A stretch of DNA of 64,000 bases, from the NCBI GenBank assembly GCA_963798285.1, contig CAWCSR010000003.1:784905-848904 (forward strand), written 5' to 3'. The notes below the pieces were generated by a model, which searched no databases, was not told the DNA's origin, and saw only the letters and a list, made by a program, of their open reading frames with translations. Position numbers and translations under genes: made by a program. Each line of letters begins with the position of its first letter. Within the stretch, counting starts at the first letter, position 1. The DNA comes from an uncultured Thermoleophilia bacterium (GTDB taxonomy: Bacteria; Actinomycetota; Thermoleophilia; UBA2241). This document shows, one piece after another, positions 3,001 to 61,472 of the stretch.

Positions 3001-6000
3001 TTCTCGTCGTAGGCCGTCACCGCCGTCAGGTCGTTGAAGTACTGGCGCTTCGCCGTGGTCAAGGCCAGGCCGATCGGCTGGCCCAGGGCGGCGTCGGTGG
3101 ATGTGGTCACCTGGTCGGCGAACCGGCCCATCAACTCCTCGGTACCGGCGATACCGCTCCAGTCACCGAGCCCGTAGCCGGTGCTGGCCACGAGCACGCC
3201 CTTCTGTCGCGCCATGGCCTGCGGCACGTCGAGCGACGGGTCGATGTCGGCCCAGCGGTCGTTCGCCTGATCGTCCGGGACGCTGAGCCCTGCATGGCAG
3301 CCGATCGTGAAGATGAGCTTGCCGGCGAACGCCGGAGACGAGGCGATCTCGGTGCTCGAGAGGAACTGATCGCTCCAGTCGTCGCCGGCCATCATCGTCT
3401 GGTAGCCGGCGCCCGAGATGGTGCCGAAGTGCGTGTAGTGAGAGTTCAGGTTGCCTACATCGCTGTCGGGAAGATCAGTCCGCAGATCGTCGAGACTCCA
3501 CGTGTCCGGCGTCTCCATCTGGGCATCCAAGCCTGCATTGGTGAGGATCTGGTTCACCCGCTGGGCGCCGTCGGTCATGAAGTCCTGGCCGGTGACGACG
3601 GAGCTTCCGCCCGTCAGGACGCCCTTGTCCACATTGAGGAACTTGTCGATGGTGCCGGCGATCTCGGCAGGCGTCTCGACGAGGCGCGCAACGGCGACAT
3701 CCGGGACGTAGAGCCAGCGGCTGCTGTACGGGATGGGGGTTTTGTCTGCGTAGTAGTCATCGGTCAGCACCTGGGACTTGAACAGCCCGCTCTCGAGCAC
3801 GCTGGTGAGGTCGAGGGCAGACTCGTCGGCATAGAGGCGCTCGTTGTCGAACGACGTCCGGTCGATCACCCGGCGCTGGGGGACGACCTCGTCGCTGCCC
3901 ACCAGCACGATGTACTTGATCGAAGGGTGACCGTGGTCGTTCGGATCCGCTGGATCCCCGTAGATGCAGTCGTCGATCTCCGCCCTGATGTCCTCAGCGA
4001 CGCCATTGGCGAGGTCGGTGTCCCACGGCGTGCGGTCCCAAGGGTCATAGATGCTGGAGGGTACCGCGAGGATCACGCCCTTGCCGGTCAGGTCACTGCC
4101 GCAAGCCGCATCGAGAGCAGGCTGGACTGTGTTCGACCAGGAATTCAGGCCGTAGTACGCGTCAATGCGCTGCGGCTGCGTGACGAACAGGGTCTGCGGA
4201 TCCGTCACGGTCGCCGGGTTCAGGATGGCCGGCTGCGTCGTGACGCCGCTCTTGACCTTCTCGGTGCCGCTCTTGCCCTCGTTCAGGAGGGCGGAGTAGT
4301 CGAGCTCAGGGGTCGTCTCCACCTGGAGCGTGTACGGCGCGACGTCCGAGTACGCGCCGTTCGCGCCCTTCACAGCGATGAACGTCTTGCCGTTCACCGT
4401 TTCGACGGTGACAAGGATGACCTCGTTCTGCGTCCCTGACGCGGCCGAGTAATCGCTGATCGTCCGCATCTGCATCTCTTCGTGACTGAATCCCAGCTCC
4501 TCGAACGTGATGTCGCCGCCGGACGTGGTCGTGTCGTCCAATTGGGTGAAGCTCAGATCGGAGAGCGGATAGCCGTCGAGGAGCTTCGTCTGGTCCCCGG
4601 TAAGGCTGGGCCCGAGCTGCGTGTAGAGCGTCGTGGCGTCGGGGTCGCGGTAGAAGGCCTCGAAGTCGCCGCCGCCGCCGGTGGCCAGCCTGCCGCCGCC
4701 GCCGGTGATCAGCCTGCCGCCGCCGCCGGTGGCCAGGCGCCCGCCGCCGAGACTGATCGTCCTGGCAATGGACTGGCCCTCGAGCGGAGTCATGTTGCTC
4801 GTCCACGTGTCGTAGAGGCCCTCGTCGATCGCGCCCCCGCCGCCGGTGATCAGCCTGCCGCCGCCGCCGGTGGCAAGCCTGCCGCCGCCGCCGGTGGCAA
4901 GCCTGCCGCCGCCGCCGGTGATCAGCCTGCCGCCGCCGCCCGTGATCAGCCTGCCGCCGCCGCCGGTGGCCAAGCGCCCGCCGCCGCCGGTGATCAGCCT
5001 GCCGCCGCCGCCGGTGGCAAGCCGAGCGCCGACGAACTGCACGCGGCCCGCATCGACTGTGCCGCCGGTGATGAAGGACGTGCCGGCCAGATCGGTTTTC
5101 GGGATCACGTATTCCGGCTGGTTGCTGTAATCCTGGATGACGGCTGCGTCGTAGTCGGCGGGCAGGTTCCTCAGGGTCACCAGGACCTGTGTCCCGGCGT
5201 CGAGCGGACTGCCGTCGGTCTTCGTGACCTCGTAGATGTCCACGTCTCCCGTGTGTTGGATGTAGGACTGGCGGAGGTCTCCATTGCCTCGGATCTGCGG
5301 TGTGCTCTCCGTGATGCGGTCGTTGCCGTTCTCTCCCTCGTCGGCCGACATGGCGTCGTTGTGGATGGTGATGGTGAAGGGCACCGTTGTCGCGGCGCCG
5401 CCGTTGTCGGCGGTGACGGTGAGACTGCCGTTGAGCTGATCGCCGTCGTCGCCGAACAGAGGCTCCGTGACGCCTTCGACGATGCCCGAATCCAGCGCGG
5501 CAAGATTGTCCTCGGTCACGTACGCTTCGGGCCGCGCGTCGACGCTGTCGCCGACGATGTGCCAGGAGGCGGAATGCGTCTCGGCCCATGCCGAGTCGAT
5601 GAAGCGGCCGACCAACTCGGCCGGTTGACCGTTCAGGACGTCCACGTTCAGGGCATGCACGCGCGGATCGAGTTCGCCGACCTGGATCGGCTGCTCCACG
5701 ACGCACCGGGCGCCGCTCGCGTTGGCCCCGACGTCGTCCGTGACGGTGAGCACGGCGCTGTAACTGCCCTTCGTGTCCGGCACGATGAAGCCGAGCGGGT
5801 CGTTGAAGCTCACCCAGTTCCGGTCCGGATCGACGTAGTCGATCTGCCAGTCCCAGCCCATTTTGCCCCAGTCGCCGTCGGGGCTCCACGCGTCGTCGGC
5901 GTACAGCCCCACGATGTCTCCCGCGTTGGGCGCCGACGGCTTCATCGTGATGGGTGGCGCGGCGACGGTGAAGTCACAAGTCTTCGTCGTGCTGACGCCT

Positions 6001-8267
6001 GCGCTGTCAGTCGCGGTCACGGCCAGCTGGTAATCGCCGTCTGCCAGGGGATCCGGCATCGGCTTTCGTGATGCTGCATTCACCGCGCGGCCAACTCCAA
6101 GATGGCCAGAAATATCGTACTCGGCGAGGGTGACCTCGAGCCCCGTGAGCGGGCTGCCACCCGGCTTCTGCGCCTCGAACTCGAAGACGGGCTCGTTGTA
6201 GACCACCGTCCCCGCATTGACGTTCCGCAGGGACACGATCGGCTTGGCCGAGTCGATCTTCAACGTGATGGTGTTGTCGGCTTCCTTGTTGCCGGCGGCG
6301 TCCACCGACCAGTAGGTCAACGTGCGCTCTCTGGTGGTCCCGTCGTCGATGACCTTGGCACTCTCACTCTGTTGCGGAGCCTGGCCGTCGATCTGATACC
6401 ACGTCTCCATGACCCCGCTGCCACCCATGTCGGTAGCGCTCAAGTCGTACGTCACGTCGGTCGCATACCAGCCATCGCTGTCGACGGACGTGGTCGATGC
6501 CTCCGTGACCGGGTCCTCGGTATCGAGCTTCGCCTGGATCACGGCGGTCTGGCTGTTGCCCGCCTTGTCGGTCGCGGTGAAGGTCACCGTGTAGGCACCG
6601 TCGTCGGTGATCTTGAACGTGTCGGTGATGCCGGAGGCGTACGTCGAGCCATCCTCCTCCTTCGCCACGTAGCTGACCCCGGCCACCTGCGACAGCCCGT
6701 CGCTCGCGCCGGCGCTCACGGTGACGTCTTGGTCGCTCCACTCGCCGCTCGGCGACTTGGTGGGAGCGAGGGTCGGCTTGGTGGTGTCGATGTTGAAGTA
6801 CAGTCTGTTGTGGGCCTCGACGTTGCCGGCCTTGTCCGTCGACCAGTACTCGAGCTGATGGTTCTTGAGGTCACCACGGATAGTCACGTTTGCGCCGGAC
6901 GTCGTCGCGCCACTGTCGAGGCTGTAATAGGTTCCGGCAACACCGGAGCCGCCCGGTTCGTCGGCTGCCGCCAGCGTCACCGTCACGGCGGTGTCGTTCC
7001 AACCGGCTGGGTTCGCCGCGGGGCTCTGGGTGGCCGTGGTCGTTGGCGCGACGACATCGTAGGCGTACGCCGCGACATTGGGCTCGTAGGCGATCGTCGC
7101 ACCGCTTGAAGAGCTGAATGCGCCGCCGCAGAGCACCGTGCCCTTGATGACGGCCGAGCTCGAGATGCTGATCGCGCCGGCCTTGTCGCATAGGAGTCCG
7201 TAGAAAGTCGAGGTGCTGCTGATCGACAGCGCCTTGCTCGCGCCGGTCATCAGGAAGAGCGCCGGCTTGGGATCTGCGCCCACGCCGTCGCCCGCCATCG
7301 TCTGGACACCGCTGATGCTTACGTTGCCGCCCGCGACGAAGAGGCCGACGTTCCACTGGCCGGTGCCTGACAGGGACGTGTCGCCGGCGACGTACGTCGG
7401 CCCCCACTGCAGGGCCGTGCCGGCGGAGATGCTGAGGCTGCCGCCGACATACAGCGAACCGATGCTGAACTTGGCGTTGGAGGCCGAGATCGACATGCTG
7501 CCGGTAACGTAGAGGGACTTGAAGGTGTAAATGCCGGAGCCAGAGATGGAGAGGTTGCCGTTGACCGTCATGGGGGTCGTGACGGTGACGTTCTGGGTCC
7601 CGCTGTACACGACATTCTTCTTGGCCACCGTACTGTCGTAAGGGGCGATCTTGGCAGCGGCCGTCAGCGCGGAGATGCGCGAGTCGGGCAGATACTGCGC
7701 GAATGGGGGAACATTCGCGCCGGTCGCCTGCGACACCGTGCTCACGTTGGCGGTCTTCGCGGTGGTCAGCTTACCCTTGACGTAGAGGGCGGCAGTCGGG
7801 TCGGCGCCGTAGAGCGGGCTGGTGACCTTGGTCGTGCCGGCCACGCTCGCGTTGCCTCCGACCCAGAGCGCCACACCGCGCATCTTCAGCGTCGCGTCGG
7901 AATGCTGCGCCTCGGCGACCCCGTTCTTGTCGACCGAGTAGTACCTGATGGGATACACGCCAGGCATGGTGACCGTCACGGACGATCCCGTCTGCCACGA
8001 CGTGCCGCCGTTCAGCGAGTACATCGTGAAGTCGACGCCCGGGCCGCCGACGTCGGTGGCCGTGAACCTTACCGTGACCGACGCGGTCGTCTGCCACGCT
8101 GCCGGACAGTCGCACGTGGTCGAGGGTGTGGTCACGTACAGCCAGCCGGGCTGGATCCCGAGATCATCCGCCCATGCAGTCTGCGTCGCGGCGCCCGCGA
8201 GGCCACCACCGAGTGCGAGAACGGTCAGGACAATCAGGAACAGATACGGCCGTGTCGACGTGCGCAT
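1..8267 (-). CDS. Giant secreted multidomain surface protein, N-terminal >2,755 codons (3' end lies beyond the window start)
   Basis: Own translation of the minus frame whose codon top coordinate is 2 mod 3. ATG at 8265-8267 is preceded by GGGGGAG. The signal peptide is [33 protein letters not shown]. There is no in-frame stop down to nt 3, which explains its absence from the ORF track. All listed ORFs in 1-8267 are in other frames or on the other strand and have Arg/Gly/Pro-rich shadow composition. Phase was spot-checked at 4443-4499 ([19 protein letters not shown]) and 2742-2759 (YEAKLI). Recurrent motifs: GWY..., YWS(V/T)D(A/K)AGN(V/K)E (OmpL47-type/Ig-like modules), GDVDIYEV (PPC-like) and [13 protein letters not shown] (RCC1). 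Confidence 0.85.
700..1725 (-). repeat. Seven RCC1-type beta-propeller blade repeats (protein level, ~50-aa period) inside the giant ORF
   Basis: Translation gives seven blades: [98 protein letters not shown]. Each is followed by an H(S/C)L(G/A)(L/I/V) strand. Confidence 0.8.
4666..4750 (-). repeat. Tandem 21-bp repeat array A (3 units) encoding GGG(G)RL(A/I)T heptads
   Basis: The reverse complement reads [31 protein letters not shown]. The units are near-identical at nucleotide level (ggcggcggcggcaggctg[atc/gcc]acc). Confidence 0.9.
4833..5026 (-). repeat. Tandem 21-bp repeat array B (8 units) encoding GGGGRL(A/I)T heptads
   Basis: The reverse complement reads [69 protein letters not shown]. 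The listed plus-strand ORF 4846..5130 (PPPPV(A/I)SL repeats) is its antisense shadow. Confidence 0.9.
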
Positions 8268-54005: not shown

Positions 54006-55164
54006 CTACCGAGCTGCGATGGGCGTCGGCCACGGTGCCGGCGAACACCTCCCGCAGACTCTTACCCTCAAGGTGAGCTCGAACCTGCTGCTGGGCGCCG
54101 TTGCCGTCGCGCAGCATGCGCTCCACGTCGGCGAGGTGCGGGCTGAGGCCGATGCGCATCGGCGCTCGGCGCCGCAAGCTCGACGAGATGCCGGACCGCG
54201 TCCGCCGCCGGCAACTCCTCGCCCATCGCCCAGTCGACGAGTTTGCCGTCCAGCCCGTAGCGGATCGCCCGCCACAGGTTCTCCTCCACGTACCGCGTCT
54301 GCAGGATCGGCAGCGGCAGGCCCTCGTCGTAGACGCGCGCAAGGTGCGCGATGAGCCCGACGGTGAGCGACGAGATGGCCAGGCTCTCCCATCGCCTCCG
54401 CCTGCGCGTCGCAGATGCGCACCTCCACGGTGCCGAACCGGTGGTGCGGGCGCACCGCCCACCAGATCTGCGTGAACTCCTGGATGCAGTTGGTGTCGAT
54501 GAGTTCCTCGTAGAAGCGCGCGGTGTTCGGCCCACGTGCCGAACACATCCGGTATGCCGCAGCGCGGGAACATGCGCATGAACGTCTGGGTGCGCGCCGA
54601 GTGCAGCTGCGTCCACACGCCCTCGATGAAGGGCGAGTTGGCCGAGAGCGCGAGGAGGTGCGGCAGGTAGGTGCGCAGGGCGTCGCAGACGGCCACTGCC
54701 CTGTCGAGGCCGCGCACGCCCACGTGTACGTGCGCGGCCCACGTGTTGTTGCGCCACGCCACGTACTTGAGCCGGTCCTCGACCAGCCGGTAGTGCGGCG
54801 TGTCGATGATCTGCTGGTCCTTCCAGCTCGAGAAAGGGTGGGTACCGGTGCTGCCGAGCGCGTAGCCCTGCTCGTCGGCGTGGGCGAAGAGCTCGGCGCG
54901 GTTGAGCAGGAGCTGCTTCGCCGCCTGCCCGAAGTGCAGCGTGCGCGGCGTGCTGACCTCTATCTCCGAGGTGAGCAGCTCGCCGGCGATGCGCTCGCGC
55001 AGGCGCGGCGACGCCGAGTCGCGCAGCGTCTCGAAGGCGCCCGTGAGCGCGAGCGTGTCCCGGTCGAGGATCTGGAACTCCTCTTCGAGGCCGAGGTCCA
55101 GGTCGTGCGCGTTCTCGAAGCGCGCTTCGACCTCCTCGAAGTATGCGTCGTGGTCGGCTCCCAT
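54006..55164 (-). pseudogene. Carboxylate-amine ligase, glutamate-cysteine ligase family 2 (YbdK-like; at least three frameshifts; 3' end ambiguous)
   Basis: ATG at 55164. Signatures: LGLEEEFQILD, LTSEIEVSTP, GTHPFS, AAHVHVGV, LLALSANSPF. Frames run 0>2>1>0. The last frame reads without a stop into the next gene, and an alternative frame stops at 54006. Confidence 0.8.
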
Positions 55165-55321
55165 CGAGGAGCACTCTACCGAAACCGCGCGACCTTGACA
55201 CACGCGCCGCGGCGCGAGGGCGCCGGCGGAGCACGAAGAAGGGCCGCCGGGCCGGCTCGTCACGAGCCGGCCCGGCGGCCACGGTCCTGCCCCGCGCGGA
55301 TGCGCGAGAGCGCCGCCGCGC

Positions 55322-55768
55322 CTACTGCGCAGGCGGCGGCGTGACCTCCGCCGGCAGCGGGTGGACCTTCAGGTCCTTGATGGTGAACACCGCGACCGGA
55401 CCGGTGCGGTCGATCGTCCCGCGCACCTTCACCCTGGCGCCCACCGGCACGTCGGCGAAGGCGATCGTCACCGCGCCGTGCCTGGTGAGCAGGCGGATCT
55501 TCGCGTTGGCGGCCACGGTCATCGTCGCATCCGTCTCTCGAAACGCGCGCACGGTCTTCGTCCCGGCCTTGACCTTGATGGTGACGGTCGAGACCGCGGC
55601 CGGATCGAGGGTCGTGTCGGCGACGGTCACGACCTTGACGACGCCGACCAGGTTGAACTTGGCTTTGCCGTGCTTCCATCCCCCGCCGCCGGGCGCGCCG
55701 GCGAGAGCCAGCGGCGCGAGCGTCAGCGCGAGGGCGACGGCGGCGACGATCAGGAGCAGTCTCTTCAC
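55322..55768 (-). CDS. Small secreted hypothetical protein
   Basis: GTG at 55768, 8 nt after GAGGAGG. The signal peptide is (M)KRLLLIVAAVALALTLAPLALAGAP, and the rest is beta-rich. Confidence 0.6.
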   Translation of the reverse strand: MKRLLLIVAAVALALTLAPLALAGAPGGGGWKHGKAKFNLVGVVKVVTVADTTLDPAAVSTVTIKVKAGTKTVRAFRETDATMTVAANAKIRLLTRHGAVTIAFADVPVGARVKVRGTIDRTGPVAVFTIKDLKVHPLPAEVTPPPAQ

Positions 55769-56033
55769 GTGCACGACCTCCTCGGGTCCTTGGTCGTCGG
55801 TGGGCCACTTGTGTGGTCCTGTGCACCCATAACGGACGGGAGCAGCGGAACCTTCCACGCCCGCACCAGCCGCCGTCGTCGGCGCAGGCTACGCGGGCCG
55901 GCCGCAACGGGGGGTGCGACGGACCCGGCCGCCGGACGCCGCCCCCGGCCGCGCCGCTCGCGGGGGGTTGCGCCCCTTTCCAATCCGTATAGCATTACGC
56001 GCGGCACAGGGCAGGATGGGGAAAGGAGCCCGT

Positions 56034-56648
56034 GTGAAACTCAGTCTCGTTCCCAAGGAACACGACTACTTCAGGCTGTTCTCAGAGCTGGCGGCAAACC
56101 TCGACTCCGCCGCTCAACTGCTGGTCAAGTTCATGAACGACGGTGACCGCAAGGGGATCGCGGCTGGGATCCTCGAGCACGAGCACGTCGGCGACAAGAT
56201 CGTGCACGACATCATCCGCAAGCTCAACAAGTCGTTCATCACACCCATCGACCGCGAGGACATCTACGACCTCGTGGCGACCACGGACGAGATCCTCGAC
56301 AACATCGAGGCGGCGGCCGACATGGTGATGCTGTACCGCGTGGGCGACATCACCGAGCAGGCGCGCCGCCAGGCCGACGTCATCGCCAAGGCCACGCCGC
56401 TCCTCAAGGAGTGCATGGACAACCTCGAGAAGCCCAAGGGCCTCGACGAGCGCATCATCGCCATCAACAGCCTCGAGAACGACGGCGACCGCATCCTGCG
56501 CGAGGCCATGGCGAGCCTGTTCGATGGTGAGTGGCAGTGCACCGACATCATCAAGTGGAAAGACATCTACGAGATCCTCGAAGCCGCCATCGACGAGTGC
56601 GAGCACGTGGCCAACGTCATCGAGAGCATCGTCCTCAAGCACAACTGA
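56034..56648 (+). CDS. DUF47/PhoU-like phosphate-transport regulator paired with Pit
   Basis: GTG at 56034 follows GAAAGGAG. Sequence: FRLFSELAANL..., HEHVGDKIVHDIIRKLNKSFITPIDREDIY..., ENDGDRILREAM. It is the usual partner immediately upstream of a PiT transporter. Confidence 0.8.
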   Translation: MKLSLVPKEHDYFRLFSELAANLDSAAQLLVKFMNDGDRKGIAAGILEHEHVGDKIVHDIIRKLNKSFITPIDREDIYDLVATTDEILDNIEAAADMVMLYRVGDITEQARRQADVIAKATPLLKECMDNLEKPKGLDERIIAINSLENDGDRILREAMASLFDGEWQCTDIIKWKDIYEILEAAIDECEHVANVIESIVLKHN

Positions 56649-56662
56649 CCTGAGCACAGGCC

Positions 56663-57655
56663 GTGGTCATCCTCATCACGATCGTCGTCCTGGCGCTCGT
56701 CTTCGATTACACCAACGGCTTCCACGACAGCGCCAACGCGATCGCTACCTCGGTCTCGACGCGCGCGCTCTCGCCTCGCACCGCGGTCCTCATGGCGGCG
56801 GGGTTCAACCTGGTCGGCGCCCTCGTCTCGACCAGTGTGGCGAGCACGGTCGGCAAGGGCATCGTGGACACCAACCTGGTGACGCTGCCGCTCGTGCTCG
56901 CCGCGCTCGTCGGAGCCGTGGTGTGGAACCTCATCACCTGGTACTTCGCCCTTCCGTCCAGCTCCTCCCAGGCGCTGTTCGGCGGCCTCATCGGCGCCAT
57001 GATCGCCGCTGTCGGTGTCTCGGGCGTCGAGTGGGGCGGCGTCGTCGACAAGATCGTCCTCCCCATGGTGCTCTCGCCGGTCATCGGCTTCGCCGCGGCG
57101 TACCTGCTGATGACGATCCTCATATGGGTCGTGCGCAAGCGACCGCTCGCGCCGGTCAACCGCACGTTCCGCCGCCTGCAGCCTTTCTCCGCCGCGTTCA
57201 TGGCGTACGCGCACGGCGGCAACGACGCCCAGAAGACCATGGGCGTCATCACGCTGGCTCTCGTGTCCAGCGGCCACCTCGCCACCTTCACCATCCCGCT
57301 CTGGGTCAAGCTGGCCTGCGCCCTCACCATGGCGCTCGGCACGTACTCCGGCGGCTGGCGCATCATGCACACGCTCGGAGCCAAGGTCATCAAGCTCGAT
57401 CCGATCCACGGGTTCGCGGCCGAGACCAGCGCCGCCACGGTGATCGAGATCGCCACCCACTTCGGCTTCCCCGTCTCGACCACGCACACGATCACGGCGG
57501 CCATCATGGGCGTGGGCGCCACTCGGCGGCTCAAGGCAGTGCGCTGGGGCGTCGCCGGCAACATCGCCACGGCCTGGGTGCTCACCCTGCCCGCCGCGGC
57601 ACTCGTCGCCGGCGGCGTGTACCTCGCCGGCGTCGCGATCAACTCCCTCTTCTGA
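56663..57655 (+). CDS. pit: Inorganic phosphate transporter, PiT family
   Basis: Intact 330-aa polytopic ORF with the duplicated PiT signature GFHDSANAIATSV ... GGNDAQKTMG. Confidence 0.92.
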   Translation: MVILITIVVLALVFDYTNGFHDSANAIATSVSTRALSPRTAVLMAAGFNLVGALVSTSVASTVGKGIVDTNLVTLPLVLAALVGAVVWNLITWYFALPSSSSQALFGGLIGAMIAAVGVSGVEWGGVVDKIVLPMVLSPVIGFAAAYLLMTILIWVVRKRPLAPVNRTFRRLQPFSAAFMAYAHGGNDAQKTMGVITLALVSSGHLATFTIPLWVKLACALTMALGTYSGGWRIMHTLGAKVIKLDPIHGFAAETSAATVIEIATHFGFPVSTTHTITAAIMGVGATRRLKAVRWGVAGNIATAWVLTLPAAALVAGGVYLAGVAINSLF

Positions 57656-57687
57656 GCCGGGGGCGCGACCCCGCGCCTGGCGGGCGA

Positions 57688-57716
57688 TTGACCGAACGTA
57701 ACTGTTACGTTACCGT
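57688..57716 (+). promoter_or_regulatory. Candidate padR promoter with an embedded 17-bp palindromic operator
   Basis: TTGACC (57688-57693), a 17-nt spacer gAACGTAACTGTTACGT, then TACCGT (57711-57716). The perfect palindrome AACGTAAC-T-GTTACGTT spans 57695-57711. It is AT-rich in GC-rich DNA, about 65 nt upstream of the padR TTG start. Confidence 0.6.
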
Positions 57717-57782
57717 CATGACAGGCCCGGCCACAGCGTGTGGCTGCGCCGCTCCCGCCCGCCCCGACCCAGGACGCCCTAG

Positions 57783-58247
57783 TTGGCCCGCGTGTTCAAC
57801 CGCGGAGAGCTCAAGCTGGCTCTCCTCTCCGTGATCGCCTCGCTCGGCGGAGGGCACGGCTATGCGATCATGCAGGAACTGCAGCGCCGGGTCGGCAGCC
57901 AGTGGCGTCCGAGCCCGGGGGCGATCTACCCGGCGCTGGTCGCCCTCGAGGAGGCCGGCCTCATCGCCTCGGAAGAACACGAGGGCCTGCGCGTCTACCG
58001 GCTCACGCCGGCAGGGACCGCGGGGCTGGACGGGCAGGACGTGGGACCGAGCTGGCGGGACATCTCCCGACGCGCCCACGCCCGGCGCCCGCGCGTGACC
58101 CTGGGCCGGCTCCTCGACCGTTTCGAACTGGGCCTCCCGCGCCGCGCGGACCTCAGCCCCGAGCAAGCCGAGAGCATCGACGCGGCGCTCACGCGCACGC
58201 GCAGCGACATCGCCGCGATCCTGGATGAAGGAGCAGCACATGGATGA
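57783..58247 (+). CDS. PadR-family transcriptional regulator
   Basis: Intact 154-aa ORF with a winged-helix core: LKLALLSVIASLGGGHGYAIMQELQRRVGSQWRPSPGAIYPALVALEEAGLIAS...YRLTPAG. Confidence 0.85.
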   Translation: MARVFNRGELKLALLSVIASLGGGHGYAIMQELQRRVGSQWRPSPGAIYPALVALEEAGLIASEEHEGLRVYRLTPAGTAGLDGQDVGPSWRDISRRAHARRPRVTLGRLLDRFELGLPRRADLSPEQAESIDAALTRTRSDIAAILDEGAAHG

Positions 58248-58545
58248 GTTCGGGAAGGCCGCTCTCCGCGAGCGTGAGGCCGTACGCATCGCGCGGCGCC
58301 AGTGGTTCTGGATGGACCTCCTCGTCTGGGCGGCCATCAGCGTCTTCCTGTTCGTCATCTGGTGGCTCGCCGGAGGCGGGTTCCCCTGGTTCGTGATCGC
58401 CGTCGGGGCGTGGGGCATCGTCGTCGTCGCCCACGCCGCCTTCGCCTTCGTGCTCCGCAGCCCGGAGGACATTCTGCTCGAGCGGGAGGAGCAGGAACGC
58501 CGGCAGAAGGACCGCGAGCGGTCCCGTGACGACCGGACCGGTTGA
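58240..58545 (+). CDS. 2TM-domain membrane protein, translationally coupled to padR
   Basis: ATG at 58240 follows GAAGGAG and overlaps the padR stop by 8 nt. Two TM helices (LLVWAAISVFLFVIWWLAGGGFPWFVIAVGAWGIVVVAHAAFAF) are followed by a charged tail. Confidence 0.75.
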   Translation: MDEFGKAALREREAVRIARRQWFWMDLLVWAAISVFLFVIWWLAGGGFPWFVIAVGAWGIVVVAHAAFAFVLRSPEDILLEREEQERRQKDRERSRDDRTG

Positions 58546-58570
58546 GTGAACGTAAGTGTTACGTTATGGT
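58542..58570 (+). promoter_or_regulatory. Second copy of the promoter/operator module, upstream of the B12-radical SAM gene
   Basis: TTGAGT (58542-58547), a 17-nt spacer gAACGTAAGTGTTACGT, then TATGGT (58565-58570). The palindrome at 58549-58565 has one mismatch. The geometry is the same as at 57688-57716. Confidence 0.55.
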
Positions 58571-58718
58571 CGTGTACGGCACGCCGGCACGCCGGCGTCT
58601 CATCGACCGTCCACTGGGAGCACCCGCGGCCATCATCGTCCGGTCACCAGCCCGACATGATCGCCGGTCCGCCCGCCGCTTCGCGGGCGCGGGCGCACTC
58701 CCTGTTGCAAGGAGCGCA

Positions 58719-60136
58719 ATGAAGATCCGCCTCATCGAGCCCGAACCGCCCGGGATGCACGTCTGGGCCAAGGTCCTGCTTCCCCGCCTGGGACTGCCCA
58801 TCATCGCGGCGACCCTCAAGGAGCACGGCCACGACGTGCTCGTGTACAACCCCACCATGGCGCCCATCGACTGGGACGACGTCAACACGTCGGACCTCGT
58901 CGGACTGTCGAGCACGACGTCGACCGCGACGACGGCCTACGAGTTCGCCGAACAGCTCCGCGCGAAGGGCATCCCCGTCGTCATCGGCGGCTCGCACGTC
59001 ACCTTCATGGCCGACGAGGCGCTCGAGCACGTGGACTACGTGGCCCGCGGCGAGGGCGGCGAGCAGCTCATGCTCGAGCTCATCGACGCGCTGGGCGGCG
59101 GACGCGAGCTCGACACCATCGCCGGCCTGTCGTTCAAGCGCGACGGCCTCGCGGTGCACAACCCGCCGCGCGAGGCCCTGGCCGACCTCGACGAGCTGCC
59201 GTTCCCCGACCTGCGCCTGCTCGTCGGCAGCGACAAGCTCACGACGATGCCGATCATGACCAGCTGGGGCTGCCCCTTCGACTGCACCTTCTGCTCGGTG
59301 ACGGCGATGTTCGGCAAGAAGTACCGCTTCCGCAGCGCCGAGAGCGTCATCGCCGAGCTCAAGGACAAGCGCCCGCAGCGCATCTTCTTCTACGACGACA
59401 ACATGGCGGCCAACCGCAAGCGGCTCAAGAGGCTGCTGCAGATGATGATCGACGAGGACCTCGTCATCCCGTGGTCCGCGCAGGTGCGCACCGACGTCGT
59501 CCGCGACACGGAGCTGCTCGACCTCATGCGCCGGTCCGGCTGCAACCTCGTCTACCTCGGCCTCGAGTCCGTGAACCAGGAGACGCTCGACAGGTTCGAG
59601 AAGTCGCAGACGGTGGCCGACATCGAGAAGGCGATCAAGGTGCTGCACGACTACGGCATCAAGAGCCACGGCATGTTCGTGCTCGGCGCCGACGACGACG
59701 ACGTGCAGACGGTGCGCGACACCGTCGCCTTCGCCATCAGGAACAAGATCGACACGGTGATGCTCAACATCCTCACGCCGCTCCCCGGGACGCTCGCAGT
59801 TCCAGGAGTTCGACGACGCGGACCGCATCTTCGACAAGCGCTGGGAGCTCTACGACGCGCACCACGTCGTCTTCGAGCCGGCGCGCATGACGCCCTACGA
59901 GCTGCAGATCGAAGTGCTCCGCGGCTACATGCGCTTCTACTCGCTGCGCACCTGGCTGGGCTACATCTTCACGCTGCAGTTCACCAAGCAGCTGCTCTTC
60001 CACTGGTGGGGCATGGCGATCATCCGCAACTGGCGGCGAGGACGAGCGCAACAAGGCGTTCATCAAGGCGCTCAAGCAGATGTGGCCGAGTCCGACGCCG
60101 CGCGGCACCGTGCGCCAGGGGGCACGCGACGATTGA
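58719..60136 (+). pseudogene. B12-binding-domain radical SAM protein (class B; two frameshifts near 59795 and 60035)
   Basis: ATG at 58719 follows AAGGAG. The N-terminal B12-binding fold is LVGLSSTTSTATTAYEFAEQLRAKGIPVVIGGSHVT. The canonical cluster motif is MTSWGCPFDCTFCSV. The C-terminus continues in ORF 59887..60327, then ...DERNKAFIKALKQMWPSPTPRGTVRQGARDD* (TGA at 60134-60136). Confidence 0.85.
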
Positions 60137-60149
60137 CCCACGTGGCCGC

Positions 60150-60189
60150 GCCGGCGAGCGGTGCGCTGCACGGCGCACCGCTCGCCGGC
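60150..60189 (+). terminator. Perfect 17-bp hairpin 14 nt after the radical SAM stop
   Basis: gccggcgagcggtgcgc (60150-60166), loop tgcacg, gcgcaccgctcgccggc (60173-60189). There is no U-tract. Confidence 0.55.
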
Positions 60190-60409
60190 GGCTCATTGAG
60201 GGCGGAAGCGGCGGCGGACGACACGCTCCCGCCGCCGGATGAGCGGGCCGGCCCGCTCCAAACAGTTCCGCAGGGCGGGCCGCGAAGGTTGTCAGGCCGC
60301 CGGTCGGATGTTAAGGTCTCGCCTTGAGTTTGGTGAGTGCAGAGCACGCGACGGGCTCACCTCAACGAGGGCGCTTCGCAAGGGCGGACGCCCAAAAGGA
60401 GGCGATGCA

Positions 60410-61472
60410 GTGAACGGCAATCGACGGATTCTCACTCTCTGTCGTCCTCCTCGGCACCCTCCTTCTCTCCCTCGTTTTCGCCACCTCCTCCTTCGCCTCC
60501 CCCGTCGCCAGCAAGAAAGCGCAGCTGCGCGCAGGTGCAGGCCAAGCTCCAGACCGTGTACCACCAGGTCGACGTGGCCGTGGAGAAGTACAACCAGGCC
60601 ACCACCCAGCTCGACACGGTCACGTCGCAGATCAAGGAGAACGAGCGGCTGCTCAAGGTGGCCGAGTACAACCTCCAGGTCGCCAACCAGCAGCTCTCCG
60701 CGCGCGCCGACGACATGTACCGGGCACGCGACGTCGGCGTCGTCGACGTCCTGTTCGCGGCCAACAGCTTCGACGATCTCGTGACCCAGCTCGACGTCAT
60801 GCAGCGGCTGGGCAACAGCGACGTCGACACCGTCAAGAGCATCGCCGCCTACCAGCAGGACATCAAGGACAGGCGCGTCAAGCTCGACGCCGACAAGAAG
60901 GCGGCCGCCAAGCTCGTCGACACGGCGGCGCAGAACAAGGCCAAGGTCGACGGCCTGCAGAACAAGCTCGAGCAGATGACGGCCGGCCTCAAGTCCCAGA
61001 TCGATCGTCTGCAGGCGCAGCAGGCCGCCGCGGCCAAGGCCGCTGCGGACGCGGCAGCCGCCGCGCAGAACAGCGGCGGCTCCGGCAGCAGCAGCAGCGG
61101 AGGCGGCACCGTCGTCGATCCCGGCGGCTCGGGCCACTCGAGCGTCGTCGGCATCGCCCAGCGCTACCTCGGCGTGCCGTACGTGTACGGCGGCGCCAGC
61201 CCGAGCGGCTTCGACTGCTCCGGCCTCACCATGTACTGCTACGCGCAGATCGGCATCGGCCTCTCGCACGGCGCCACCGACCAGCAGCACGCGAGCACTC
61301 CGGTGCCCATCAGCGCGCTGCAGCCGGGCGACCTCGTGTTCTTCGGCAGCGCCGCTACAGCTACCACGTCGGCATCTACGTCGGCGGCGGCAGCATGATC
61401 AACGCCCCGCACACCGGCGCCGTCGTGAGCTACGGCTCCATCAGCGGCGCCTGGATCGGTGGCCGTCCCTGA
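60410..61472 (+). pseudogene. Secreted NlpC/P60 peptidoglycan endopeptidase with an N-terminal coiled-coil (RipA/PcsB-like; about three frameshifts)
   Basis: GTG at 60410, 7 nt after AGGAGG. Signal peptide: ...VVLLGTLLLSLVFATSSFASP. Coiled coil: VQAKLQTVYHQVDVAVEKYNQATTQL... NlpC/P60 core: YLGVPYVYGGASPSGFDCSGLTMYCY...SHGATDQQ, then ...YHVGIYVGGGSMINAPHTGAVV...* (TGA at 61470-61472). Confidence 0.85.

Follow-up and report, generated by a model that had tools for sequence, protein, structure and literature searches.

Architecture of the locus

The stretch of DNA analysed here (64,000 nucleotides of contig CAWCSR010000003.1, in the following called the window) originates from an uncultured soil actinobacterium of the Thermoleophilia and carries two 17-bp palindromes, O1 and O2, each of which is located within a putative promoter. 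O1 precedes a gene for a PadR-family regulator that overlaps with the gene of a 2TM-domain membrane protein, and O2 precedes the gene of a class B radical SAM enzyme (rSAM). Both palindromes are predicted operators of the PadR protein encoded between them, and the features involved are the following.

57695-57711, no strand assigned: O1, AACGTAACTGTTACGTT, composed as AACGTAAC-T-GTTACGTT; perfect 8-1-8 palindrome, predicted operator
58549-58565, no strand assigned: O2, AACGTAAGTGTTACGTT, composed as AACGTAAG-T-GTTACGTT; one arm mismatch, predicted operator
57688-57693, + strand: -35 hexamer of the padR-2TM promoter, TTGACC
57694-57710: spacer of the padR-2TM promoter, 17 nt
57711-57716, + strand: -10 hexamer of the padR-2TM promoter, TACCGT (TAnnnT)
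58542-58547, + strand: -35 hexamer of the rSAM promoter, TTGAGT
58548-58564: spacer of the rSAM promoter, 17 nt
58565-58570, + strand: -10 hexamer of the rSAM promoter, TATGGT
57783-58247, + strand: padR, 154 aa, TTG start (MARVFNRGELK...), PF03551
58240-58545, + strand: 2TM-domain membrane protein, 101 aa, PF13239
58719-60136, + strand: class B (B12-binding) radical SAM gene, PF02310 and PF04055, predicted target
58571-58718, + strand: rSAM 5' leader; contains AAGGAG as Shine-Dalgarno sequence, a hairpin of the form GCCGG-N4-CCGGC and further conserved blocks
55914-56648: PhoU_div gene
56663-57655: PHO4/PitA gene
downstream of the rSAM gene: two NlpC/P60 genes and pilT

A preliminary description of the window had reported 17-bp palindromes in the 17-nt spacers of two look-alike promoters, and re-reading of the DNA confirmed both its coordinates and its sequences. 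Its statement that the palindromes sit exactly between the hexamers is right as far as the filling of the spacer is concerned, but does not hold as a strict fit, as one nucleotide remains between each -35 hexamer and the palindrome; the final T of each 17-mer furthermore doubles as the first T of the -10 hexamer. The two 29-bp modules align as described, with identical letters at 24 of 29 positions, and a domain search matched the genes downstream of them to padR-2TM and the B12 radical SAM gene, as had been assigned. Of the earlier notion of a duplicated module, the likeness stands, while a recent duplication does not, and we are dealing with two independently constrained sites instead.

The conserved core of O1 reads ACGTAA-N3-TTACGT. 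With A or T at 11 of its 17 positions, the palindrome is conspicuous because the G+C content of the window amounts to 70 %. Searching the window for the 17-mer with up to three mismatches returned only these two places, whereas 0.00 were expected from 100 shuffles, and relaxed scans with other half-site spacings revealed no additional site within the 64 kb. The genes are tightly packed around the second module: the start of the 2TM gene overlaps the padR stop by 8 nt (58240-58247, ATGGATGA), and its own stop codon TGA (58543-58545) falls within the -35 hexamer of the rSAM promoter.

Conservation of both modules in orthologous loci

The alignment of orthologous intergenic regions, which the preliminary description had suggested as a check, shows both modules and their hexamers kept at the same two positions in about 25 loci of related Thermoleophilia. 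In three long contigs encoding PadR proteins of 86, 72 and 68 % identity, the gene order PhoU_div-PHO4-PadR-2TM-rSAM-P60-P60 is retained, and palindrome and hexamers are present at both positions in all three of them. We furthermore scanned 80 additional metagenomic loci, totalling 390 kb, with the pattern ACGTAA-N3-TTACGT. In twelve of the 19 loci encoding a PadR of at least 58 % identity, padR is preceded by a site at a distance of 27-96 nt, and most of these twelve, where DNA is available, feature a second site directly after the 2TM stop, at +741 to +781 relative to the padR start. Among the remaining seven, L070 has a version of the site with N2 spacing, padR of L075 lies inside an operon and has no site, and L011-L015 are devoid of O1. 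All matches with at most one mismatch in the 390 kb are found at promoter positions, namely before padR, before rSAM or, in L027, before a short open reading frame (ORF) preceding padR. The motif is thus not the common dispersed repeat that the preliminary description had considered as an objection, as it occurs at two sites in the window and these matches in related loci are all at promoters.

Collation of 24 distinct padR sites and 22 distinct rSAM sites (PadR identity 58-95 %) revealed that AACGTAA-N3-TTACGTTA is invariant, including the outer A and TA that had not been selected by the search pattern. The TTG of the -35 and the TA...T of the -10 hexamer are conserved as well, and the flanks drop to background within a few bases, a pattern which, judged from the alignment, is a classical phylogenetic footprint. 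At the 24 padR sites the -35 hexamer is invariably TTGAC[CGT], and the -10 hexamers of the orthologous padR promoters read TATCTT, TATGCT or TATATC. The 22 orthologous rSAM sites show conservation of TTGnnn at the -35 position, and the T, A and final T of their -10 hexamers are invariant.

The lineage represented by L011-L015 is informative in this respect, as it lost the palindrome before padR (about 40 nt upstream) and kept both the TTGACC-17-TATATC promoter and O2. PadR is apparently no longer autoregulated in these loci. Since the promoter is intact without O1, the palindrome is not needed by the promoter, which argues for repression over activation, and the retention of O2 marks the rSAM gene as a maintained target.

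Co-occurrence of the sites with padR-2TM

The rSAM protein is highly conserved and encoded with 75-81 % identity in six loci of other lineages (L113, L114, L115/L116, L117, L118 and L119). These sister loci keep the order PhoU_div-PHO4-rSAM-P60 without padR-2TM, except that PHO4 is found in fragments in L118 and that neither PhoU_div nor PHO4 was called in L114. None of the six padR-less loci has a palindrome before rSAM or elsewhere in the locus, and their promoters differ. The palindrome is thus found before rSAM only where padR-2TM is present, in agreement with the earlier proposal that links PadR to the rSAM site. Even if it goes back to a single event, this distribution shows that O2, as a predicted operator, is part of the padR-2TM cassette. 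Among Thermoleophilia lineages, this segment (57656-58718 in the window), including both operator-promoters, represents as a whole an insertion/deletion polymorphism upstream of rSAM, and it is situated between PHO4 and rSAM wherever PHO4 is present.

More distant PadR clades (40-50 % identity) reside in unrelated neighbourhoods, where a 2TM gene usually overlaps the end of padR and no rSAM gene follows; in several of these loci, a 'Sensor' (PF13796) membrane protein is encoded after padR. Here, ACGTA-N3/4/5-TACGT palindromes lie over the -35 and -10 hexamers of their own promoters, with two tandem copies of ACGTAA-N1-TTACGT or ACGTA-N4-TACGT covering -35 and -10. L017 contains two sites of the N3 type, the second of which fills the spacer of TTGACA-17-TACTTT. 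That related palindromes are placed over the padR promoters of distant PadR-2TM clades favours the interpretation as PadR operators already put forward in the preliminary description. Regarding the organisation of these distant loci, we also observed padR-2TM-'Sensor' (PF13796) operons with tandem operators 22-23 bp apart in L029, L035, L038, L061 and L063, and a padR that follows a second gene with weak similarity to PadR, the predicted operator being located approximately 730 nt upstream, in L065, L069, L073, L076 and L078.

A scan of 185,579 species genomes with TTGA-N4/5-ACGTAA-N3-TTACGTTA yielded 29 loci, the genome of the window not being among the species representatives matched. Low-GC genomes account for 11 of the 29, which is consistent with chance according to our own estimate of about 35 expected matches. 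On the high-GC side, 16 of 18 matches are padR-2TM(-rSAM) loci of metagenome-assembled genomes (MAGs) from Thermoleophilia and Actinomycetota. In the other two loci, the match lies in the promoter region of a TetR-family gene, namely in L092 (Thermoleophilia; site at approximately 5585-5610 on the - strand, beside an SRPBCC-family gene) and in L093 (Acidimicrobiales; 6006-6050, palindrome in tandem, beside an alpha/beta-hydrolase gene), and the same sequence seems to be used by unrelated regulators. A third type of site did not turn up in the genomes with padR, so that the regulon would seem to be minimal, as far as a scan by exact matching can tell.

Promoter hexamers

All orthologs share the conserved pattern TTGACN-17/18-TAnnnT. 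In L006, L007, L094 and L109, the padR ATG follows the -10 hexamer (TATATC or TATACC) at a distance of 7-8 nt, and the conserved start of PadR in these loci reads ATG GCA CGC, translating into MAR.... Leaderless transcripts are common in Actinobacteria, and this position of the ATG probably reflects the geometry of a leaderless transcript, which would independently mark TTGACC-17-TATATC as a functional promoter.

Two other assignments of the sites were rejected. A reading as a promoter of an extracytoplasmic function (ECF) sigma factor (AAC...CGTT) was discarded by inspection, as its elements are 10 nt apart and hence too close for a -35/-10 pair. The HAIR element of HspR consists of CTTGAGT-N7-ACTCAAG, of which just the TTGAGT half was found at the second site. 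Next to the padR promoter, an ATG 2 nt past the -10 hexamer opens a 38-codon ORF (57718-57834, MTGPATACG...) that is read in another frame and overlaps the padR start; as it is apparently not conserved in orthologs, it is probably not a gene.

The PadR protein and its 2TM partner

The regulator matches PF03551 with 57.1 bits over residues 14-81 (gathering cut-off 27) and has more than 300 homologs, most of them from Thermoleophilia MAGs. Its AlphaFold2 model (pLDDT 86.3) found Rv3488, Rv0047c, Bacillus subtilis PadR and LmrR as best matches in Foldseek, all with a probability of 1.00, and the modelled fold is the winged helix-turn-helix of the solved PadR proteins. Residues Y27, Y49 and R70 are invariant across 11 homologs at 50-100 % identity and align with Tyr20, Tyr42 and Lys67 of B. 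subtilis PadR in a profile alignment to 5X11, while the base-contacting His38 and Ser39 of the latter are replaced by Pro and Gly, which fits the altered base of the half-site. Structural matches are good only over the N-terminal 80-100 residues of the 154 aa protein, and the model places three helices after the wing (91-100, 107-116 and 126-153). For comparison, PadR proteins of subfamily-1 comprise about 180 aa with a separate C-terminal dimerisation/effector domain, and those of subfamily-2 about 110 aa. Literature searches covering the PadR clade, Rv0047c, 2TM/PF13239 and the ACGTAAC motif in connection with PadR retrieved nothing on the clade, the operator or the PadR-2TM pairing.

The 8-nt overlap between padR and the 2TM gene, with the sequence ATGGATGA or GTGGATGA, was found in every clade examined, and across clades the 2TM protein is better conserved than PadR itself (53-88 % versus 40-71 %). 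Its most conserved part is the N-terminal MDEFG..REREA.RIARRQWFW segment, the corresponding N-terminal helix in the window being MDEFGKAALREREAVRIARRQWFW. The constant overlap together with the higher conservation of the 2TM protein suggests that both proteins work together. That the membrane protein relays a signal to PadR is offered here as a hypothesis. The gene call P0103, which appears as a fusion of PadR and 2TM, is ridden with frameshifts and was dismissed as evidence of an interaction.

One may go further and regard PadR-2TM as a two-protein membrane-signalling unit that is widespread in Actinomycetota, in which a cue from the envelope or membrane is sensed by the 2TM protein, which in turn controls the access of PadR to ACGTA-type operators. 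In the Thermoleophilia clade of the window, such a unit would have been inserted upstream of a B12 radical SAM gene and captured it, the enzyme possibly modifying an envelope component. We consider this extended scenario speculative and rather unlikely in its entirety.

Proposed mechanism and alternatives

Based on the anatomy and conservation of the sites, we consider it likely that the palindromes are operators for the dimer of the adjacent PadR, which are placed in the 17-nt spacers of promoters for the housekeeping sigma factor and allow repression by promoter occlusion. A PadR dimer bound in the spacer would cover roughly positions -33 to -7 and exclude RNA polymerase, the transcription starts being predicted at about 57722-57724 and 58576-58578. 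Binding to O1 would render the padR-2TM operon autoregulated, and binding to O2 would place the B12 radical SAM gene that follows, which has a promoter of its own, under the control of the same PadR. As a terminator scan found none between the 2TM and rSAM genes, O2 might additionally be an obstacle to transcription reading through from the padR-2TM promoter. The regulon probably consists of padR, 2TM and rSAM only. Derepression might be brought about by a small molecule bound by PadR or by a membrane-derived signal transmitted via the translationally coupled 2TM protein, and we regard the membrane-derived signal as at least as likely as the small molecule.

Several points weigh against this model. 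The window covers 64 kb of a genome of about 2 Mb, which makes the three-gene regulon a minimum. A generic sigma-70 scan of 55500-61000 with E. coli-type thresholds called zero promoters; it misses the two described here because their hexamers match the E. coli consensus TTGACA/TATAAT at only 8 of 12 positions, and the promoter call thus depends on the comparative evidence together with the TTGACN/TANNNT pattern of actinobacteria. The padR-bearing lineages may furthermore form one clade, in which case the correlation between the presence of padR-2TM and of the rSAM site might represent a single event and not six. Since the palindrome is shared with the promoters of TetR-family genes, the regulator is not identified by the sequence of the site alone. 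Finally, the rSAM gene of the window spans three frames and contains two +1 frameshifts (near 59785-59795 and 60035-60040) when compared to intact orthologs of 470 aa. One of these is located at a CCCCGGG run, and the MAG assemblies of close relatives with contig_N names likewise show frameshifts, because of which we attribute those in the window to probable sequencing or assembly errors. If they are real, the predicted target could be a pseudogene in this genome.

The occurrence of the identical ACGTAA-N3-TTACGT core directly before the TetR-family genes of L092 and L093 raises the question of whether the sites are operators of a regulator encoded elsewhere, for example of the TetR family, and padR merely one of its targets. 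No TetR is encoded among the seven genes around the sites, however, and the rSAM operator vanishes exactly where padR-2TM is absent. Related palindromes accompany PadR-2TM even in the unrelated contexts of distant clades, and the half-site resembles the operator of B. subtilis PadR, which leaves a foreign regulator quite improbable. The direction of regulation by PadR is to be weighed separately. Some members of the PadR family, such as AphA, activate genes, and the spacer between -35 and -10 is also the position from which activators of the MerR type operate. In addition, the second-best match of PadR among PDB sequences is 1yg2, entitled 'gene activator AphA'. PadR might consequently activate its targets or have a dual role, either by MerR-like remodelling of the spacer or in the manner of AphA. 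The lineage L011-L015, which lacks O1 and still has the same hexamers and spacing, speaks against this, as do the ordinary promoters found before rSAM in lineages without PadR and the -35 hexamer TTGACC, which is already near consensus. MerR-type activation moreover requires over-long spacers of 19-20 nt, compared to 17 nt in the window and 17-18 nt in the orthologs, and the adjacent regulator is a PadR and not a MerR protein. Activation or a dual role is thus improbable.

We also considered that the 29-bp modules have no operator function, but are either direct-repeat boundaries of an inserted padR-2TM cassette or RNA hairpins. They do share the same orientation, and the segment they enclose is precisely the one absent from the sister lineages, and the palindrome could form a 7-bp stem. 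Conservation centres on the core and the hexamers instead of on the ends of the repeats, though, and the differences specific to each module (TTGACC versus TTGAGT; AAC versus AAG) are kept across orthologs, which excludes concerted evolution. A single copy was lost in L011-L015, and distant clades carry tandem sites on one side only, neither of which is in line with boundary repeats. As for RNA, the palindrome would be located upstream of the transcription start if the hexamers are promoters, and would not be transcribed from them; moreover, there is neither an Rfam match nor a terminator. Boundary repeats or hairpins are, in our judgement, highly improbable.

Comparison with known PadR systems and implications

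B. subtilis PadR recognises the padC operator CATGTAA-ATAG-TTACATG, with Tyr20, Tyr42 and Lys67 as hot-spot residues (PMC5728393; PDB 5X11). It is a repressor that binds its palindrome as a winged-helix dimer, and its half-site ATGTAA differs by one base from ACGTAA in the window; this resemblance to a solved operator supports the assignment of the sites to PadR made in the preliminary description. The arrangement ATGTAA-N4-TTACAT is replaced by ACGTAA-N3-TTACGT here, bringing the half-sites one base closer together. The canonical PadR operator ATGT-N8-ACAT is accordingly not matched, and the window site ACGT-N7-ACGT is a related variant of it. The protein of the window furthermore has 154 aa and a different C-terminal region of three helices, compared to about 180 aa in subfamily-1, and B. 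subtilis PadR targets a phenolic acid decarboxylase instead of a radical SAM enzyme. The obligate 2TM partner gene is a further difference of the locus described here.

LmrR of Lactococcus lactis (subfamily-2) is an autoregulated repressor that likewise binds in front of its own gene and of a single adjacent target operon, lmrCD (PMC4534193). It differs by its size of about 110 aa, by sensing drugs directly in the dimer interface, by its ABC exporter target and by having no membrane partner. Its sequence is only distantly similar: LmrR chains are among the Foldseek matches, while the sequence-profile search gave no match to LmrR at E <= 0.1. Rv3488 of Mycobacterium tuberculosis (PDB 5ZHC) is also of actinobacterial origin and the closest solved relative both by sequence (E = 6e-8 in the single-sequence and 1.4e-8 in the profile search) and by fold, but comprises a single domain of 113 aa and does not share the gene context. 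The PadR of the window is not a member of the NCBIfam Rv3488 family, scoring 27.6 against a cut-off of 140.

Transcription factors paired with a small membrane inhibitor are known from the LytTR regulatory systems HdrRM and BrsRM of Streptococcus mutans. Here as there, a small DNA-binding protein is encoded, and presumably co-transcribed, with a small polytopic membrane protein, which may serve as an analogy for a control of PadR by the 2TM protein. The LytTR regulators belong to another DNA-binding family, and an interaction between PadR and 2TM is a hypothesis at this point.

The arrangement of PadR and its predicted operators is thus of a known sort, and occlusion of the promoter by a repressor is a textbook mechanism; mechanistically ordinary, it is set apart by the variant half-site and spacing, the unusual target and the obligate membrane partner. 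For a PadR clade of uncultured Thermoleophilia that had not been characterised, the analysis provides a concrete prediction of an operator and of a regulon of three genes, and the PadR-2TM pair with ACGTA-type operators recurs over many actinobacterial lineages. With a syntenic rSAM gene that would be under PadR control only in the presence of the padR-2TM cassette, the locus offers a clean case of putative regulatory capture. The pairing with 2TM is a lead on small membrane proteins that might control PadR regulators, and operator and repressor could be developed into an orthogonal expression switch for high-GC hosts.

The rSAM gene and its leader

The rSAM protein stayed below every NCBIfam equivalog cut-off tested, including those of BchE, HpnJ, HpnR and PhpK, with best scores of 186.9 bits for BchE (cut-off 481) and 145.8 bits for HpnJ (cut-off 578). 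By these profile scores, it is an uncharacterised class B radical SAM protein.

Several blocks of its 5' leader are conserved in close relatives, namely the hairpin just past the -10 hexamer, GTCCACTGGGAG, a TATCAT box and CTCCCTGTTCCAAGGAG. CUCCC within CTCCCTGTTCCAAGGAG has two possible pairing partners, GGGAG and the Shine-Dalgarno sequence. When 11 rSAM leaders were analysed with RNAalifold, conserved blocks with zero compensatory pairs were obtained, and an Rfam search of 55000-61000 yielded no riboswitch or other RNA family, but only sub-threshold miRNA-like noise. A second regulatory layer in the rSAM leader is therefore possible, but unsupported by these searches.

Corrinoid-related genes are encoded just 5' of the PhoU_div-PHO4-rSAM block in L114 (1-1887), L117 (367-1020), L119 (1-280) and L001 (508-1188), comprising a CobA/CobO adenosyltransferase, a B12-binding_2/B12-binding protein and DUF1638. 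The presence of this upstream gene cluster fits a B12-dependent function of the radical SAM enzyme.

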